In this document: positions 1 to 4,612 of the stretch, piece after piece | How positions within the stretch are numbered: position 1 is the stretch's first letter | Layout of the letters: each line of letters begins with the position of its first letter | Virus record (IMG/VR): IMGVR_UViG_2660237951_000007 | Location: 1-4,612 of that record | Length of the DNA stretch: 4,612 nucleotides | Reading direction: 5' to 3' (one strand) | DNA from: a virus | Lineage: Duplodnaviria > Heunggongvirae > Uroviricota > Caudoviricetes | Program-made: the position numbers and the translations under genes | Notes under the pieces: model-generated | The model's database searches: none | The model's input: the letters and a program-made list of their open reading frames with translations, nothing else | Told to the model about the DNA's origin: nothing

Positions 1-182
1 GATTTGAGTTTGGGGTTTAGCGTGACAAGTTTGCGAGGGTGATCGGAGTAATCAGTGAACAGTTCGCCACCAACAATAACATCATAACCGTGGTTACGTG
101 TCGGTTGTCGCCCGTTATCCGTTCCTTCTGACCATGCCACCATATCCAGGAAAGCTTTACGCTGGGAATTTAGTGCCTGCAT
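1..182 (-). CDS. R: Endolysin, phage lambda R-type lytic transglycosylase; N-terminal 60 codons only, 3' end lies beyond the window start
   Basis: Absent from the supplied ORF track because it is truncated. Minus-strand translation from ATG at 182-180 reads MQALNSQRKAFLDMVAWSEGTDNGRQPTRNHGYDVIVGGELFTDYSDHPRKLVTLNPKLK, which matches the N-terminus of lambda R nearly residue for residue as I recall it, including the WSEGTD segment with the catalytic Glu. AGGAG (plus coords 189-193) sits 6 nt upstream of the ATG, inside the last codons of the preceding holin gene. Confidence 0.9.
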   Translation of the reverse strand, partial: MQALNSQRKAFLDMVAWSEGTDNGRQPTRNHGYDVIVGGELFTDYSDHPRKLVTLNPKLK

Positions 183-185
183 AAA

Positions 186-521
186 TTACTCCTTCGAGCT
201 ACCAAATTTGTTACCGATTACTCGCATTGCAGCCCCACGAATAGCATCGACACCGATCAGCCCCACGCCACCACCAATGGCAACAGAAAGCGATTTAGGC
301 CATCCGACATATTCAAGAGCGGATGCAAAGGTCAGCGTCAGAGCGCCACATAGCAAAATCTCGAGCGTTTTTCGCTTCCAGCCACCACCACCGCCAAAAT
401 AGGCGATGCGCAAACCAGCCATAACGATCGACATAATCACTGCACCCAGCGGTGTGTCTCCACGCCACCAGCTCTGAAACAACTCCAGCCAGTCCGGCCA
501 GGTATTTGGGTTATGAGGCAT
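186..521 (-). CDS. Class I holin, lambda S-like (about 111 aa from ATG at 521-519; the track ORF 186..617 is over-extended at its 5' end)
   Basis: Three hydrophobic segments (LGAVIMSIVMAGLRIAYF, TLEILLCGALTLTFASALEYVGW, SLSVAIGGGVGLIGVDAI) and a charged C-terminal tail. The N-terminus MPHNPN...MAGLRIAYFGGGG and the C-terminus GLIGVDAIRGAAMRVIGNK parallel lambda S (MPEKHD...AMAYLRGRYNGG and GYIGTDSIGSLIKRFAAKK, from memory). The stop TAA at 188-186 lies 3 nt before the R start, the classic S-R arrangement. The longer reading to 617 would overlap the methyltransferase stop codon and an intrinsic terminator, so the internal Met33 start is preferred. Confidence 0.75.
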   Translation of the reverse strand: MPHNPNTWPDWLELFQSWWRGDTPLGAVIMSIVMAGLRIAYFGGGGGWKRKTLEILLCGALTLTFASALEYVGWPKSLSVAIGGGVGLIGVDAIRGAAMRVIGNKFGSSKE

Positions 522-562
522 TTCGTCATCTCTCACCTCGCGATATTTGCGGGTGCTGTGTT

Positions 563-590
563 GGAAATAAAAAGGCCACGCAACGTGGCC
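563..590 (-). terminator. Rho-independent terminator directly downstream of the methyltransferase gene
   Basis: On the minus strand: GGCCACG-UUG-CGUGGCC (perfect 7-bp stem, plus coords 574-590) followed by UUUUUAUUUCC (plus 563-573). It begins 8 nt after the methyltransferase stop codon at 598-600. Confidence 0.6.
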
Positions 591-597
591 ACCAGAA

Positions 598-1650
598 TTA
601 TTTCCCCACCAGTTCACTTACCTCTTTCACCGTCTGATTAAACCGCTCTGACTCAAGTTCAACACCTAACGCCCGACGCCCCAGCGCCATTGCTGCTTTT
701 ATTGTGGAACCGGATCCCATAAAGAAATCAGCAACCAGATCACCAGGTCGACTACTGGCATTGATTATTTGCCGGAGCATATCCGCCGGTTTCTCGCACG
801 GATGTTTACCCGGGTAGAACTGAACGGGCTTATGCGTCCAGACATCGGTATAAGGCACGGAGACTGATACGGAGAAATAGCGCCGGAGAGATTTAAACTC
901 ATCCAGCAATTCAGAATATTTGCGATTCAGTGAATCATAAGATGCCACCAGCTGGTGGTGTGGTTGTTCCAGTTGTTGTTCCTGAAACTTCTCTGCCGCT
1001 ATACGGGAAAACAGTGCCTGTAACTTCCGATAGTCAGCCTCATTCGGCAACTGCCACTGACTGGCACCAAACCAGTGGGAAACCATATTTTTCTTACCTG
1101 TGGCTTCGGCAATTTGTTTTGCCGTTATACCCAGTTCGGCACGAGCATCCCTGAAATACGATATCAGCGGTGCCATTATGTGCTGTTTGAGTTCCCTTTC
1201 TTTTGCCGCATAGCCGTCACTTTTGCCGCGATATGGCCCCTGGTAATGTTCAGCAAACAGAACGCGCTCTGTGGCAGGAAAATATGCGCGCAGACTTTCT
1301 TTATTACACCCATTCCAACGTCCGGACGGCTTCGCCCAGATGATATGGTTAAGCACGTTGAAACGTTCACGCATCATGATCTCAATATCAGATGCCAGGC
1401 GATGCCCACAGAACAGGTAAAGGCTTCCGGCAGGTTTCAACACCCGCCAGAACTGGGCCAGACAGTGGTCCAGCCACTTAAGGTAATCTTCGTCCCCTTT
1501 CCACTGATTGTCCCAACCGTTAGGTTTCACCTTGAAGTAAGGCGGATCCGTAACAATAAGGTCGATGGTGTTATCTGGGAGGGTTGCGAGGTATTGCATG
1601 CAGTCAGCGTTGATAAGCTCAACACTGTTTATATTTACAGTATTTTTCAT
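598..1650 (-). CDS. DNA methyltransferase, beta-class N6-adenine/N4-cytosine family (DPPY motif; YhdJ-like), apparently orphan
   Basis: 350-aa ORF. Motif IV DPPY at residues 35-38 (plus coords 1537-1548) lies near the N-terminus and the AdoMet motif I FFMGSGST at residues 309-316 near the C-terminus; this IV-then-I order defines the beta group. N- and C-terminal blocks resemble E. coli YhdJ as I recall it (DLIVTDPPYF vs DLIFADPPYN; HPCEKPADMLRQIINASSRPGDLVADFFMGSGST vs [34 protein letters not shown]). No restriction endonuclease candidate is adjacent in the window. Confidence 0.88.
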   Translation of the reverse strand: MKNTVNINSVELINADCMQYLATLPDNTIDLIVTDPPYFKVKPNGWDNQWKGDEDYLKWLDHCLAQFWRVLKPAGSLYLFCGHRLASDIEIMMRERFNVLNHIIWAKPSGRWNGCNKESLRAYFPATERVLFAEHYQGPYRGKSDGYAAKERELKQHIMAPLISYFRDARAELGITAKQIAEATGKKNMVSHWFGASQWQLPNEADYRKLQALFSRIAAEKFQEQQLEQPHHQLVASYDSLNRKYSELLDEFKSLRRYFSVSVSVPYTDVWTHKPVQFYPGKHPCEKPADMLRQIINASSRPGDLVADFFMGSGSTIKAAMALGRRALGVELESERFNQTVKEVSELVGK

Positions 1651-1742
1651 AGATCCGTAAGCGTAACTCTGATAGGCTCACTATGCTTTTGCGCTAAAGC
1701 AGTGGGCCTTGGTTAGCTTGTGACCTGAAAGCATGAGCTAAT

Positions 1743-1773
1743 GGCTGGTTGGGTGCTACAACACCCACCAGCC
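1743..1773. repeat. Imperfect inverted repeat (12-bp arms, one bulged T, 6-nt spacer) in the intergenic region between the small ORF and the methyltransferase
   Basis: Plus strand GGCTGGTTGGGTG (1743-1755) ctacaa CACCCACCAGCC (1762-1773). The arms are reverse complements except for one extra T in the left arm. No U-tract follows on either strand, so it is not a canonical terminator. Confidence 0.55.
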
Positions 1774-1800
1774 GCCCATTTCCACAGCAGAATGCCCCCT

Positions 1801-1992
1801 TCAGTGGAGGCGTTTGTAACATCCAAACTGGTAATCTGATAACCCCGCCATAACCAGCTGCGTCAGGATGAGCTGGCATTTCTCTCGGCTTAGGTGCGTA
1901 TTCTGTGCAATTTCCCCAGCTGTCGCTGGTGAAGCGCTGAGTTCGTTAAAAACCGCTTTTGCTTCTTCTGTCATATAAGGTTGATTTTGCAT
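1801..1992 (-). CDS. Small (63 aa) winged-helix/HTH-like DNA-binding protein, family uncertain (PapI/FaeA-like pattern possible)
   Basis: ATG at 1992-1990 is preceded by AAGGGG (2005-2000) with a 7-nt spacer. The segment ATAGEIAQNTHLSREKCQLILTQLVMAGL has the helix-turn-recognition-helix spacing typical of small winged-helix regulators. The gene is co-oriented with and directly upstream of the methyltransferase gene. Confidence 0.55.
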   Translation of the reverse strand: MQNQPYMTEEAKAVFNELSASPATAGEIAQNTHLSREKCQLILTQLVMAGLSDYQFGCYKRLH

Positions 1993-2070
1993 GCCTTTTC
2001 CCCTTTTTTATCGTGTGACACACAGATAACTCTGGTTCATTTTTGCATCAAGCTTTAGATACAAAAGGCA

Positions 2071-2095
2071 TAAAAAAACCCCGCCGAGGCGAGGT
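2071..2095 (-). terminator. Promoter-proximal intrinsic terminator (tR'-like) between the Q-position gene and the cargo genes
   Basis: Minus-strand RNA CCUCGC-CUCG-GCGGGG (6-bp stem with one G-U pair and a tetraloop; plus coords 2079-2094) followed by seven U residues (plus 2072-2078). It lies about 30-55 nt downstream of the candidate promoter. Confidence 0.6.
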
Positions 2096-2103
2096 TAGAT
2101 ATA

Positions 2104-2160
2104 ATTATGACAAAATATAAAATTAGCTTCAAATATGGCTCATTTTGTTGCATTTTGCAA
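2104..2160 (-). promoter_or_regulatory. Candidate sigma70 late promoter (pR'-like) with downstream -10-like elements
   Basis: Minus-strand reading: TTGCAA (2160-2155), 17-nt spacer, CATATT (2137-2132). A second overlapping candidate is TTGAAG (2132-2127), 17-nt spacer, CATAAT (2109-2104). TATATT at 2119-2114 would fall at about +7 to +12 of the first promoter. The region is AT-rich and begins about 30 bp after the stop of the Q-position gene. Confidence 0.45.
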
Positions 2161-2190
2161 GCCCATTTGAGGGAGTTAGTGAAAGTTACC

Positions 2191-2883
2191 TCACATTTCC
2201 GCCACTTTCAGTTCTTGGTACTCTTCGTACCGTGACAAAATTTCGCTTAGTGCCTGGCTATCCATTTCAGCAAACGACGCTTTGAAAGCCGCCCAGTGGC
2301 CTGAATACACTCTGAGCCAGGTGGAACGCTCAACGCTGACCATGCGCGCCAGAGCTGCACCAGCATACTCCTGATAGGTATCGTTATTACGCGAGGCAGC
2401 AACTTCTTGCGCCGCCAGCCAGACAAGCCCTACCAGTTTTTTAGTGACGCGGCCCTGTATTTTTTTGCCGCTATGCTGACGCTGAAACTGTTCCCACACG
2501 TGCTGGCACATCAATGTCTGGTACCGGAAAGTAAGGTCATACCCATAGCAGTACCGCACCCATGCCTGCAAATGCTCACCCAGACCATTGACCGAACGAC
2601 GCCATGCTGAACAAGCGAACTCCGTATCTTTAATAGGCGGCAAAGGTCGACGACGGCTCCTTGTCTCAAGAACATAAAATGGAGTGGCCAGCGTTGTTAC
2701 AACCTTTGACCCACAACCTTCCCCACCCTCCATGACGATTTCAGGATGGTGCCGGGGGTATTTATTCTTATCTGCTGGTGGATGCTCACTGAACGCCTGC
2801 AGCTGTCCTTTTGTCGATCCTGATAAATCCGCCAGCGCGCGGCGCAGTTCAATCCGCGTATATTCCAGTTCTTGTAAATTCAT
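2191..2883 (-). CDS. Putative late-gene antiterminator at the Q position (non-lambda-Q family; assignment by synteny), 230 aa from ATG at 2883-2881
   Basis: An intact ORF directly downstream of a DUF968 gene and directly upstream of a promoter+terminator and lysis genes. This matches the ydfU-then-quuQ arrangement I recall for the E. coli K-12 Qin prophage. It shows no resemblance to lambda Q (no paired CxxC zinc-finger motifs). The track extends the ORF to a TTG at 2904; the ATG at 2883 has GGAG/GAG upstream and is preferred. Confidence 0.5.
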   Translation of the reverse strand: MNLQELEYTRIELRRALADLSGSTKGQLQAFSEHPPADKNKYPRHHPEIVMEGGEGCGSKVVTTLATPFYVLETRSRRRPLPPIKDTEFACSAWRRSVNGLGEHLQAWVRYCYGYDLTFRYQTLMCQHVWEQFQRQHSGKKIQGRVTKKLVGLVWLAAQEVAASRNNDTYQEYAGAALARMVSVERSTWLRVYSGHWAAFKASFAEMDSQALSEILSRYEEYQELKVAEM

Positions 2884-2904
2884 TATGCTCAGCGCTCCAT
2901 ACAA

Positions 2905-3966
2905 TTACGCTTTTGTTATTACGCCGATCGCCAGCGCTCGATTCATAAATCGGAATAGCAGCTCCAGCTGGGTACCGTGTTTTTTCTCGAACGCTGCAAC
3001 ATCAGCATGTAATTTGTCGTGACACTCTCTGCACAGAGGGATCACGAACAAATCGTGGGCTTTAGTGGCGGTACCGCCCATGCCGTGACCAATGACATGG
3101 TGTGGATCATCCGCTGGCCGCCGGCAACCTTCACAGGGCTGGGTTTTAGCCCACCGGGTATAGTCCTCATTCACCCACCTGCGGTGTTTTGGGCGCAACA
3201 TGAATGATTCAGGGGATTCAGGATCCGCATGCAGAGCCAGAACCTGTGGCTGGTCATAGGCCACTTCCTGATTTGTTCCATGCTTTAAATGCGCAGCCGT
3301 GACCGCAGGGGTGACCTTCTTCTGCAAAATGTTTTTTGTCGGTGGCATCGGCACAATGTCACTTTCGCGATATACGGATAAAAACGGCTCATCCGGTAAG
3401 CGAAGCGCATGCTGGGCCATCCTTTCCGTGATTGCATCAGCAATGCCTGAGTAAACGGCCCACCAGCACAATTCACCGAGGGATAGTTCACGCTCGTTGT
3501 TGTAGCCAAGCGAAGACAGGATAGAACTGATCAGCCAGTTAATGAGATTACGCCGGGCCAGTTCTGCCAGCGCCGCGGTGGTTTGCTCGCGCAGCTGGTT
3601 ATCGCAATGCCAACAGAGCAACATTGATCCAGGGGGATGTCGCATCGTTACCAGCTCATGATGGTGATAATTAGTGTGCGGGTACTGGCATTCCTTCACG
3701 TTACGCTCTAGCCAGGATTCCAACCCGGACAAACCGCCTGCTGCACGGATAACTCTCTCGTCGGTGAAGAATTCCTCGAGGGACTTATCTTCTGCCAGCG
3801 GCTGCCGGGCATCAGGGACGAGCCCCGACGGAAGCCCAGCCATGCTTTTTGGCTGAGGCTCCACCAGCACACGCCCCTGTTGAAACAAAGACATCAGTTC
3901 GCTACCCGGCTTTAACAGCACAAGCCCAAGGCGCGGAACAGTCTCGGCTGTAAACAGTCCTCTCAC
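2905..3966 (-). CDS. DUF968-family prophage protein with C-terminal HNH-like Cys/His motif (YdfU-like)
   Basis: 353-aa ORF. The C-terminal CEGCRRPADDPHHVIGHG...VIPLCRECHDKLH matches a CxxC...HH...CxxCH zinc/HNH-type motif. The GTG start at 3966-3964 overlaps the TGA of the upstream gene (GTGA) and is preceded by AAGGGG (3980-3975) with an 8-nt spacer. Family recall is from memory of lambdoid nin-region proteins. Confidence 0.75.
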   Translation of the reverse strand: MRGLFTAETVPRLGLVLLKPGSELMSLFQQGRVLVEPQPKSMAGLPSGLVPDARQPLAEDKSLEEFFTDERVIRAAGGLSGLESWLERNVKECQYPHTNYHHHELVTMRHPPGSMLLCWHCDNQLREQTTAALAELARRNLINWLISSILSSLGYNNERELSLGELCWWAVYSGIADAITERMAQHALRLPDEPFLSVYRESDIVPMPPTKNILQKKVTPAVTAAHLKHGTNQEVAYDQPQVLALHADPESPESFMLRPKHRRWVNEDYTRWAKTQPCEGCRRPADDPHHVIGHGMGGTATKAHDLFVIPLCRECHDKLHADVAAFEKKHGTQLELLFRFMNRALAIGVITKA

Positions 3967-4612
3967 GCGGCATGCCCCTTAGCGATGTGTGCCGTCCACA
4001 GGCCGCCGATCCACTCGATGCCTTTGGGTGTAAAACGTGCCTGGCTAAAGGCGTAGTTTGTTTCGCTCGTAGTGCCAGTTTTCACTTCAAACCGCCCGGC
4101 AGCAATGTGCTGGTGCCGAGGTGTCAGCACTCCACTGAGCCGGTACAAAATGCCGCTCTCAATGAGGAACAAGCGGAAATCGGTCTCTTTGGCCTGCAAC
4201 AGCTTTGCCACCTGGCGGAAAGACATTGAGCCTTTGGCAGTACAATATCGATCGACAAACTCAACTTTCGGCGCGGCAGCGGCTAACTGCTGGCTGAGTT
4301 GTTCTTTCTGCTCGGCCAGATCCGCGGCGAGACGTAATGCCTCCGGCAATGTTTGCGGGACACTTACGGCCTGGCTGTTCTCCAGCTCTTGCCAGCGATC
4401 GACAACAGCGGCGGTAAATTCTGGCGACAGCCTGGCGACGATCACCAGAGAATCACGTTTGTTAAACCAATACTCCTCGTAGGTTTGCCCGTTTTGCGGG
4501 TGTGTGTAGGGGGTGTGCGCCAACGGCGCGGTTAAAATACCAGCAGATGCAAGGCGCTCAGCTGAGCGCTTCACATCACCATGTTTGCTCTGCACCAGCC
4601 TGGCAATTTCAC
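3963..4612 (-). CDS. Rha-family phage regulatory protein with C-terminal KilA-C/ANT (antirepressor-like) domain; 5' end beyond the window
   Basis: The N-terminal part (EIARLVQSKHGDVKRSAERL ... TYEEYWFNKRDSLVIVARLSPEFTAAVVDRWQELE) follows the Rha pattern. The C-terminal part (FRQVAKLLQAKETDFRLFLIESGILYR...GRFEVKTG...FTPKGIEWIGGLW) follows the KilA-C/ANT pattern. The reading frame stays open upstream of the track's GTG at 4595 to the window edge, so the true start is outside the window. Confidence 0.8.
   Translation of the reverse strand, partial: EIARLVQSKHGDVKRSAERLASAGILTAPLAHTPYTHPQNGQTYEEYWFNKRDSLVIVARLSPEFTAAVVDRWQELENSQAVSVPQTLPEALRLAADLAEQKEQLSQQLAAAAPKVEFVDRYCTAKGSMSFRQVAKLLQAKETDFRLFLIESGILYRLSGVLTPRHQHIAAGRFEVKTGTTSETNYAFSQARFTPKGIEWIGGLWTAHIAKGHAA

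Follow-up and report, generated by a model that had tools for sequence, protein, structure and literature searches.

Gene content of the window

The window analysed here, 4,612 nt of a Caudoviricetes genome (positions 1 to 4,612 of IMG/VR record IMGVR_UViG_2660237951_000007), carries every plausible gene on its minus strand, as judged from the open reading frame (ORF) list and Pfam. Read along this strand, an Ant/KilAC antirepressor (4595-3963) and a DUF968/HNH protein (3966-2905), both identified by Pfam, precede a 230-residue Q antiterminator (2883-2191; PF06323, the Q82 family), which begins with the ATG at 2883, the mechanical reading frame reaching further upstream to a TTG at 2904. Downstream of Q lies the putative late promoter/pause/terminator unit that is the subject of this work (2160-2071), recognised from its sequence and by homology. 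The first ORF after its tR'-type terminator, taken from the ORF list, encodes 63 residues (1992-1801); the product is weakly winged-helix-like, with weak Pfam matches to DprA_WH and TrmB that both fall under the curated cut-offs, and a similar small ORF occupies the equivalent position in Morganella, Hafnia and phiNP phages. The late transcription unit then continues with a DNA N6/N4 methyltransferase (1650-598; PF01555, E = 1e-42), a second intrinsic terminator at the boundary between the methylase and the lysis genes (590-574; a 7-bp stem with 6 G-C pairs, a 3-nt loop and the tail TTTTTATTTC in the terminator scan) and holin S (521-186; PF05106, E = 3e-27), with which the lysis cassette and the late genes begin. 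A lysozyme gene follows the holin in the near-identical prophage of strain CX21. The Q, holin and methylase ORFs of the window are all intact, and a tRNA/tmRNA scan found no such gene.

A separate observation concerns the 150-nt stretch that separates the small ORF from the methylase (1800-1651); 57 phage records, differing in Q type, conserve it, and in none is it annotated. The consensus fold of ten sequences comprises three hairpins, with compensatory changes in seven pairs and with G-U pairs that fit the gene strand, and the stretch matches no Rfam family.

The putative late promoter

The initial annotation had taken TTGCAA-17-CATATT for the promoter of a late unit downstream of the Q-position gene. 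These elements are indeed found on the minus strand, the -35 hexamer TTGCAA at 2160-2155 and the -10 hexamer CATATT at 2137-2132 being separated by the 17-nt spacer AATGCAACAAAATGAGC (2154-2138), and the assignment is backed both by conservation across 30 units and by alignment with phages 434 and 82. The 30 aligned units belong to phages and prophages of Enterobacterales and Aeromonas; 23 further loci came from a one-genome-per-species scan with a 5-sequence Q alignment. TTGCAA is identical in 29 of the 30 units, including that of phage 434, the exception being TTGTAA in L029. The -10 hexamer is (C/G)ATATT in 28 units, and none of the 30 departs from A at its second position or from T at its third and fifth; in 28 of the 30, +1 lies 35 nt from the -35 hexamer.

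Agreement of the two hexamers with the sigma-70 consensus is 8 of 12 positions, below the reporting threshold of the consensus scan, by which promoter-like sites in the window do not exceed those in shuffles (3 found against 4.2 expected). The promoter call, still a prediction, rests on homology and conservation, and consensus matching alone gives it no support. With one mismatch allowed, TTGCAA-N17-CATATT is expected 0.01 times per window, a figure that applies to a pattern picked after the sequence had been seen.

All numbering in this work sets +1 at 2125. T2125 lies 7 nt after the -10 hexamer and is homologous to the +1 A of phages 82 and 434, in keeping with the start near 2125 that had been annotated; however, A2124 may be the likelier purine start, the predicted start lying 7-8 nt past the -10 hexamer. 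The transcript of phage 82 pR' begins AAA (PMC5001585), and phage 434 has AAA at the position aligned with the window start. On the plus strand, a CII-box-like motif (TTGYN6TTGY, 2145-2158) was considered as evidence for a paQ-type antisense promoter and discarded, its count being at chance level (2 found against 1.25 expected).

The putative pause element and its variant at +7

Across the family the initial transcribed region carries TGnTAT(G/T)TT at +6 to +14, with TG at +6/+7 and TAT(G/T)TT at +9 to +14, and TTT(G/T)nTA occurs at +4 to +10 in all 30 units. The homologous element of the window (2120-2109 on the minus strand, +6 to +17) reads TT-a-TATTTT-GTC against the family consensus TG-a-TATGTT-GCC and aligns with TGGTATGTT of phage 434. 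The pause element of phage 82 pR' joins a -10-like hexamer to an extended -10 and matches the consensus better than that of lambda; GCC at +15 to +17 and an A/T-rich stretch follow, then a U at +25, and the polymerase pauses at U+25/+26 (PMC5001585). The same work found the -10-like element to be essential for the phage 82 pause and mutation of GCC to shorten it (PMC5001585). From the phage 82 numbering we infer a pause site at 2101-2100 on the minus strand (+25/+26), where the window has a T at +25 (2101).

The base at 2119 (+7) is T in the window and in the phage record Phi06_2987 (100% identity by blastn). The remaining 29 units of the alignment have G, and so does the nearest E. coli relative, strain CX21, with 98.8% identity to the window over 161 nt. 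This G-to-T change destroys the conserved TG and creates, two bases upstream of the family register, a TATATT (2119-2114, +7 to +12) that matches five of the six consensus positions. The -10-like TATATT at +7 to +12 that the initial annotation had picked out is present, but it is the lineage-specific product of this change and is absent from the other 29 units. The further suggestion of a sigma-dependent pause element gains a homologue that aligns from +6 to +25 and needs correction as to register, the conserved one being TG at +6/+7 plus TAT(G/T)TT at +9 to +14, as in phage 82. GTC in place of GCC at +15 to +17 is common to the window and several relatives. Because the TG is lost and GCC is replaced by GTC, and given the shortening of the phage 82 pause by a GCC mutation, the pause and the loading of Q could be weaker or displaced in the window lineage.

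The terminator

The stem of the terminator (2096-2072, minus strand) is formed by AACCTCGC and GCGGGGTT (2096-2089 and 2084-2077) around the loop CTCG (2088-2085), and seven T's at 2078-2072 correspond to +48 to +54, so that the U-tract ends at +54. The terminator scan lists the hairpin with 8 pairs, 5 of them G-C, its folding energy is -13.3 kcal/mol, and a fold of the 60-nt leader gives z = -3.4 against shuffles. A strong terminator with a U-tract ending near +54 had been proposed from the start, and the 8-bp stem, the seven T's, the folding energy and a position equal to that of the annotated phage 434 terminator all uphold it. A hairpin and U-run stand at the equivalent distance in all 30 units, the folding energy of the hairpin ranging from -7 to -13.3 kcal/mol. 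The hairpin begins near +29, and the U-run begins between +47 and +49 and ends between +50 and +54. Among these units the hairpin is of two types, AACCTCGC.. and AACCCGC.., and its loop takes many sequences, so that it is the predicted terminator that is conserved, not the terminator sequence. Searches of Rfam with the whole window and with 1630-2170 gave no match at the gathering score, and the weak matches (istR, csRNA, Trp leader and others) all lay on the terminator.

Conservation of the unit next to diverged Q genes

The shared geometry extends through Escherichia, Enterobacter, Klebsiella, Citrobacter, Erwinia, Mixta, Kluyvera, Rahnella, Serratia, Hafnia, Morganella and Aeromonas, and of 5426 complete E. 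coli genomes, 470 (~9%) carry a homologue of the unit, among them Nissle 1917 and many ST131 strains. When 1990-2200 was compared by blastn, the segment 2161-2066 and little else was matched in Morganella, Hafnia, Aeromonas, Klebsiella and Citrobacter phages. Against distant relatives, the segment from -35 to +29 is 62-81% identical and the hairpin 68-88%, and the flanks (the final 100 nt of Q and 100 nt past the unit) are 44-59% identical, save for the downstream flank of Hafnia L002 (70%), the shuffle baseline for the flank comparison being 55-58% identity. In the loci found the unit always adjoins a Q82-family gene, and the Q proteins beside it have diverged to 33-39% identity in Morganella and Hafnia. 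By these comparisons of sequence the unit is an island of apparent constraint beside diverged Q proteins.

A Q82-family antiterminator and a candidate binding element

The window Q matches PF06323 (E = 4e-41) over profile positions 1-207 of 220, and belongs neither to the lambda family PF03589 nor to the phage 21 family PF06530, which bears out the view of the Q-position protein as unlike lambda Q. Q proteins fall into three unrelated families, of which PF06323 is Q82 (PMC9388147, PMC7171158). Identity to phage 82 Q (X92588) is 34.9% over 92% of the protein, and is likewise 34.9% to the 'Q82-like' Q of phage 434; the 82 and 434 proteins are 89% identical to each other.

Sequence searches of the PDB, one with the window Q alone and one with a profile of 44 sequences, found no relative, and a match to macro-H2A was set aside as a spurious effect of low complexity. 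An AlphaFold2 model of the window Q (pLDDT 73) comprises two N-terminal helices, a low-confidence or disordered loop at residues 44-81 and a helical C-terminal part, and its best structural matches in the PDB are the antiterminators AlpA and lambda Q. To our knowledge, Q82 is the only Q family of which no structure has been solved, and a literature search for structural work on Q82 from 2022 onward gave Q-lambda papers only. In published work, AlphaFold models of 82Q were noted to be similar to AlpA, the ring-forming segment being N-terminal and the helix-turn-helix C-terminal (PMC9371919). The agreement of our model with that comparison weakly supports a nozzle-type mechanism, which a Q82-type Q may use; a closed nozzle in Q82 proteins has been stated to be an open question (PMC9388147).

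In phage 82 the Q-binding element (QBE) is located between the -35 and -10 hexamers, and 82Q is thought to bind as a dimer (PMC4914094). The corresponding stretch of the window contains a direct repeat, CAAAATG, at 2157-2151, where it overlaps the -35 hexamer, and at 2147-2141, with a 10-bp period. When spacers were compared with the Q proteins beside them, the bases after TTGCAAAA were found to vary with the Q clade. Spacers that start with AATGCAAC accompany Qs whose identity to the window Q is 57% or more, and AACGCAAC is found in L034, with a Q of 55%; AACCGAAC or AAACGAAC goes with four of the five Qs at 51-54% and with Hafnia, and the fifth of that group, L029 (54%), has AACCCGAC. Morganella spacers start with AAGTCAAT and those of phages 82 and 434 with AACTGGAT. 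Such co-variation of spacer and Q clade is the pattern expected if the spacer is the QBE, which makes these bases candidate specificity determinants; together with the position of the phage 82 QBE, it makes the spacer a good candidate for the element bound by Q.

A model for Q-dependent late antitermination at the unit

We propose that 2160-2072 on the minus strand is very probably the late-gene control unit of a lambdoid prophage, orthologous to the pR'/sigma-dependent pause/tR' unit of phage 82. This proposal starts from what is observed at the locus, namely the elements with their order and spacing, their homology to phages 82 and 434, their conservation, the Q family and the late genes lying behind two terminators. 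The layout of Q-dependent late antitermination that had been suggested at first thus gains a PF06323 Q gene, a predicted promoter and an early terminator that align with 82/434, and a holin/lysozyme region downstream. For initiation, pausing, termination, Q binding and loading, and read-through, the model follows the literature on phages 82, lambda and 21 and on AlpA.

Host sigma-70 RNA polymerase would initiate constitutively at about 2125/2124 from TTGCAA-17-CATATT, after which sigma-70 would re-bind the -10-like element within the first 14 transcribed bases and the polymerase would pause near +25 (2101). Without Q, the polymerase is predicted to resume and to terminate at the hairpin and U-tract (2076-2072), releasing an RNA of ~50-54 nt. 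Q made from the early operon would bind the promoter spacer, the QBE candidate, load onto the paused complex and travel with the polymerase. Once loaded, Q would suppress hairpin-dependent termination at 2096-2072 and again at 590-574, so that transcription would continue through the small ORF and the genes for the methylase, holin and lysozyme. As the second terminator stands ahead of the holin, processive read-through would be needed to reach it.

Alternative explanations

The leader RNA might mainly be a regulatory RNA in its own right, an Hfq-dependent trans-acting sRNA made constitutively in lysogens in the manner of StxS, a role that would be compatible with antitermination. The by-product of pR'-tR' transcription in Stx phage yields a functional 74-nt Hfq-binding sRNA, and the authors of that study propose that such RNAs may be common (PMC7547250). 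The RNA predicted here would have a suitable form, an A/U-rich single strand followed by the terminator hairpin and a U-tail; its 50-54 nt are 62-94% identical across the 30 units from a dozen or more genera, +1 to +29 is strongly conserved, and Rfam reports a weak, sub-threshold likeness to Hfq-binding sRNAs, the best match being istR with 22 bits against a gathering threshold of 45. However, these Rfam matches are driven by the terminator and fall far under threshold, and the conserved positions of the leader coincide with the pause features of phage 82 (the TG, the -10-like hexamer, the G/C-rich triplet and the A/T-rich run), so that an additional RNA function is not needed to explain the conservation. 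We regard an sRNA as the main role of the leader as unlikely.

A second alternative accepts the homology to phage 82 pR'-tR' and holds that this lineage has an impaired unit, in which the change from G to T at +7 has removed the TG and made Q loading inefficient, so that the switch would be attenuated or decaying. That T at +7 is confined to the window among the 30 units, with G in the closest E. coli relative, agrees with such a loss, as does the essential part played by the -10-like element in the phage 82 pause (PMC5001585). Against this, the TATATT that arises two bases upstream, with five of six consensus bases, could make up for the loss, the deposited phage record Phi06_2987 has the identical sequence, and the Q, holin and methylase ORFs have stayed intact, all of which leaves an impaired unit quite unlikely.

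The true promoter could instead be TTGAAG (2132-2127), 17 nt upstream of TGtCATAAT (2112-2104, +14 to +22), with a start at ~2097 and with TTGCAA/CATATT a fortuitous resemblance. This site was reported by the scan as its sole minus-strand consensus match in the region, with 9 of 12 positions and a TG extension; yet its -35-like hexamer varies across the 30 units (TTTAAT, TTTAAC, TTCGAC and others), as does the last base of its -10 (T, C or G), and a transcript from 2097, at the foot of the hairpin, would consist of the terminator hairpin only. In phage 82, moreover, the homologous stretch belongs to the pause signal, as its G/C-rich and A/T-rich portion (PMC5001585). We consider this reading very improbable. 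With hexamers that are not conserved, the site may be at most a second sigma-binding site, and TTGAAG-17-CATAAT may add a second sigma-dependent pause in the window lineage.

Just as improbable is that the hairpin, which at ~95 nt past the Q stop codon is plausibly placed for the end of an operon, merely ends the early Q-containing operon, with the late genes reached independently of Q by leaky termination or from another promoter, as the fixed distances between promoter, pause and hairpin in 30 units and the 82/434 layout would not be expected of an operon end, the unit always adjoins a Q82-family gene, and a second terminator precedes the lysis genes.

Implications

The assignment of the unit to the phage 82 type provides a confident annotation of the late switch for this group of prophages, including the copies in E. 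coli Nissle 1917 and ST131. The 30-unit alignment marks the invariant positions of promoter, pause element and terminator as well as the spacer bases that change with Q, and the T for G at +7 offers a natural variant within the extended -10 of the pause element. Such comparisons could help in designing templates for structural work on Q82. The leader may, in addition to its place in antitermination, double as an Hfq-dependent trans-acting sRNA of the lysogen and, separately, the spacer variants TGCA, CCGA, GTCA and CTGG (around -27 to -24) might serve as a natural specificity code of Q82 proteins; we offer both as speculative and rather doubtful ideas. The current understanding of Q antitermination is unchanged by the finding.

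Comparison with known systems

Among other antiterminators, the Q of phage 21 (PF06530) and AlpA of Pseudomonas aeruginosa show no detectable sequence relationship to the window Q, even with a profile, and their DNA elements differ from those of the window; the structural match rests on a model of medium confidence (pLDDT 73). The StxS system resembles the predicted leader in that a short RNA arises in lysogens from constitutive pR' transcription ending at tR' (PMC7547250), but the StxS precursor is 258 nt long, is processed to 74 nt and has no sequence similarity to the window leader. Lambda pR' follows the logic proposed for the unit, with a constitutive late promoter, a QBE within that promoter, a Q supplied from the upstream gene, a -10-like pause element within the initial transcribed region, as well as a terminator ahead of the late genes. 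In contrast, lambda Q (PF03589) is of a different family with no sequence similarity to the window Q, its pause is at +16/17 as against about +25 predicted here, and its terminated leader, the 6S RNA, is 194 nt as against a predicted ~54 nt, termination in lambda having been placed at +193 (PMC4914094).

The closest system is that of phages 82 and 434, for which we rebuilt the 82 layout from the GenBank records of both phages and the account given in words in PMC5001585. The phage 82 record extends no further than the Q stop codon, ending ...ATTGCAAAACTGGATTAA, with the -35 TTGCAA within the last 20 nt of its Q record, and is identical to 434 through the -35 hexamer; the terminator position of the 82-type layout was taken from the closely related 434 record, where the sequence from the Q end is aTTGCAAaactggattaaaagccaTATACTtcatgcAAATTTGGTATGTTGTAAAAAATGTATAAACCCGCTGCCGAGTGGGTTTTTTTT and the hairpin is annotated as a terminator. 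Counting the first A of AAATTTGG as +1, phage 434 has TG at +6/+7, TATGTT at +9 to +14 and T at +25, positions that fit the published description of 82 pR' save for GTA at +15 to +17, where GCC was reported for 82.

The window differs from 82/434 in its spacer (AATGCAACAAAATGAGC as against AACTGGATTAAAAGCCA), in its -10 hexamer (CATATT as against TATACT, both spaced 17 nt from TTGCAA), in the +1 base (T as against A) and in the place of the promoter, which overlaps the 3' end of Q in 82/434 and stands 30 nt past the Q stop codon in the window. It has also lost the TG of the pause element, its Q is only 35% identical to 82 Q, and its terminator is separated from the lysis genes by a small ORF and a methylase cassette. 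Shared by both are the PF06323 Q family, the -35 TTGCAA, the 38 nt from that hexamer to the TTT(G/T) motif and a homologue of the pause element followed by G(C/T)C, an A/T-rich run and T at +25, as well as a hairpin from near +30 with a U-run ending at +54 and lysis genes downstream; the 95-nt unit aligns with that of 434 position for position. The proposal that the short leader would make a new compact system for studying Q engagement does not hold, as ~54 nt is the standard geometry of 82-type units, fixed across the 30 aligned here, and 82 pR' has long been used in vitro for Q engagement and sigma-70-dependent pausing (PMC5001585, PMC4914094). The unit is of a kind already well known, and its leader of ~54 nt is a fixed trait of the normal phage 82-type layout, not a curiosity.

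Results and discussion

A non-coding segment of about 150 nt (1651-1800, minus strand) separates the 63-aa ORF from the DNA methylase gene. It is conserved in 57 phage records and annotated in none of them. Its carriers include Stx2 phages, phiP27, SfV, cdtI, mEp460 and Morganella/Providencia phages, and their Q types differ. A consensus fold computed from 10 sequences contains three hairpins, with compensatory changes at seven pairs among these sequences, and the G-U pairs of the fold fit the gene strand. The segment matched no Rfam family, and no tRNA was found in it. One possibility is that it forms a structured leader on the methylase mRNA, another that it is an undescribed RNA motif.

Four loci (L008, L009, L013 and L014) match the window at 94-99% identity over the final 100 nt of Q, yet have the other type of terminator hairpin, where identity to the window is 64-72%. 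Given this pairing of a near-identical Q end with the other hairpin type, mosaic recombination joints appear to lie within the transcribed leader. Two other loci, L017 (3226-3340) and L027 (3190-3300), retain the promoter together with a portion of the pause element and lack the hairpin, and in L030 and L032 the region following the Q match contains no recognisable unit. These four Q82-family loci without hairpin or unit may be decayed prophages or may have a different layout.

Directly upstream of Q lies the DUF968/HNH-like gene (2905-3966, minus strand), the end of which coincides with the beginning of the extended Q ORF. In Citrobacter phage phiNP its homologue (L006, 1-793) is labelled a second 'antitermination protein Q', apparently a mis-annotation. 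The first gene 3' of the terminator encodes the 63-aa protein (1801-1992, minus strand), which has weak winged-helix matches to DprA_WH and TrmB, both under the Pfam cut-offs. Many relatives have a similar small ORF at the equivalent position, and the counterpart in Hafnia phage yong2 is annotated as a transcription regulator. Further downstream, between methylase and holin, a second strong intrinsic terminator (574-590, minus strand) consists of GGCCACG-TTG-CGTGGCC followed by TTTTTATTT, and two terminators therefore precede the lysis genes.

Two further motifs lie within or beside the late promoter region. The initial transcribed region holds a promoter-like site, TTGAAG-17-TGtCATAAT (2104-2132, minus strand), from which transcription would begin at the base of the terminator hairpin. 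The relatives do not conserve its hexamers, and in the lineage of the window it could provide a second site for sigma-70 binding or pausing. On the plus strand, antisense to Q, a CII-box-like motif, TTGTTGCATTTTGC (2145-2158), matches the consensus TTGYN6TTGY and overlaps the -35 hexamer and spacer of the late promoter. Matches to this consensus occur here at chance level, with 2 found against 1.25 expected. The phage 434 record has an annotated CII box and paQ -35, which overlap the -35 of 434's own pR'.
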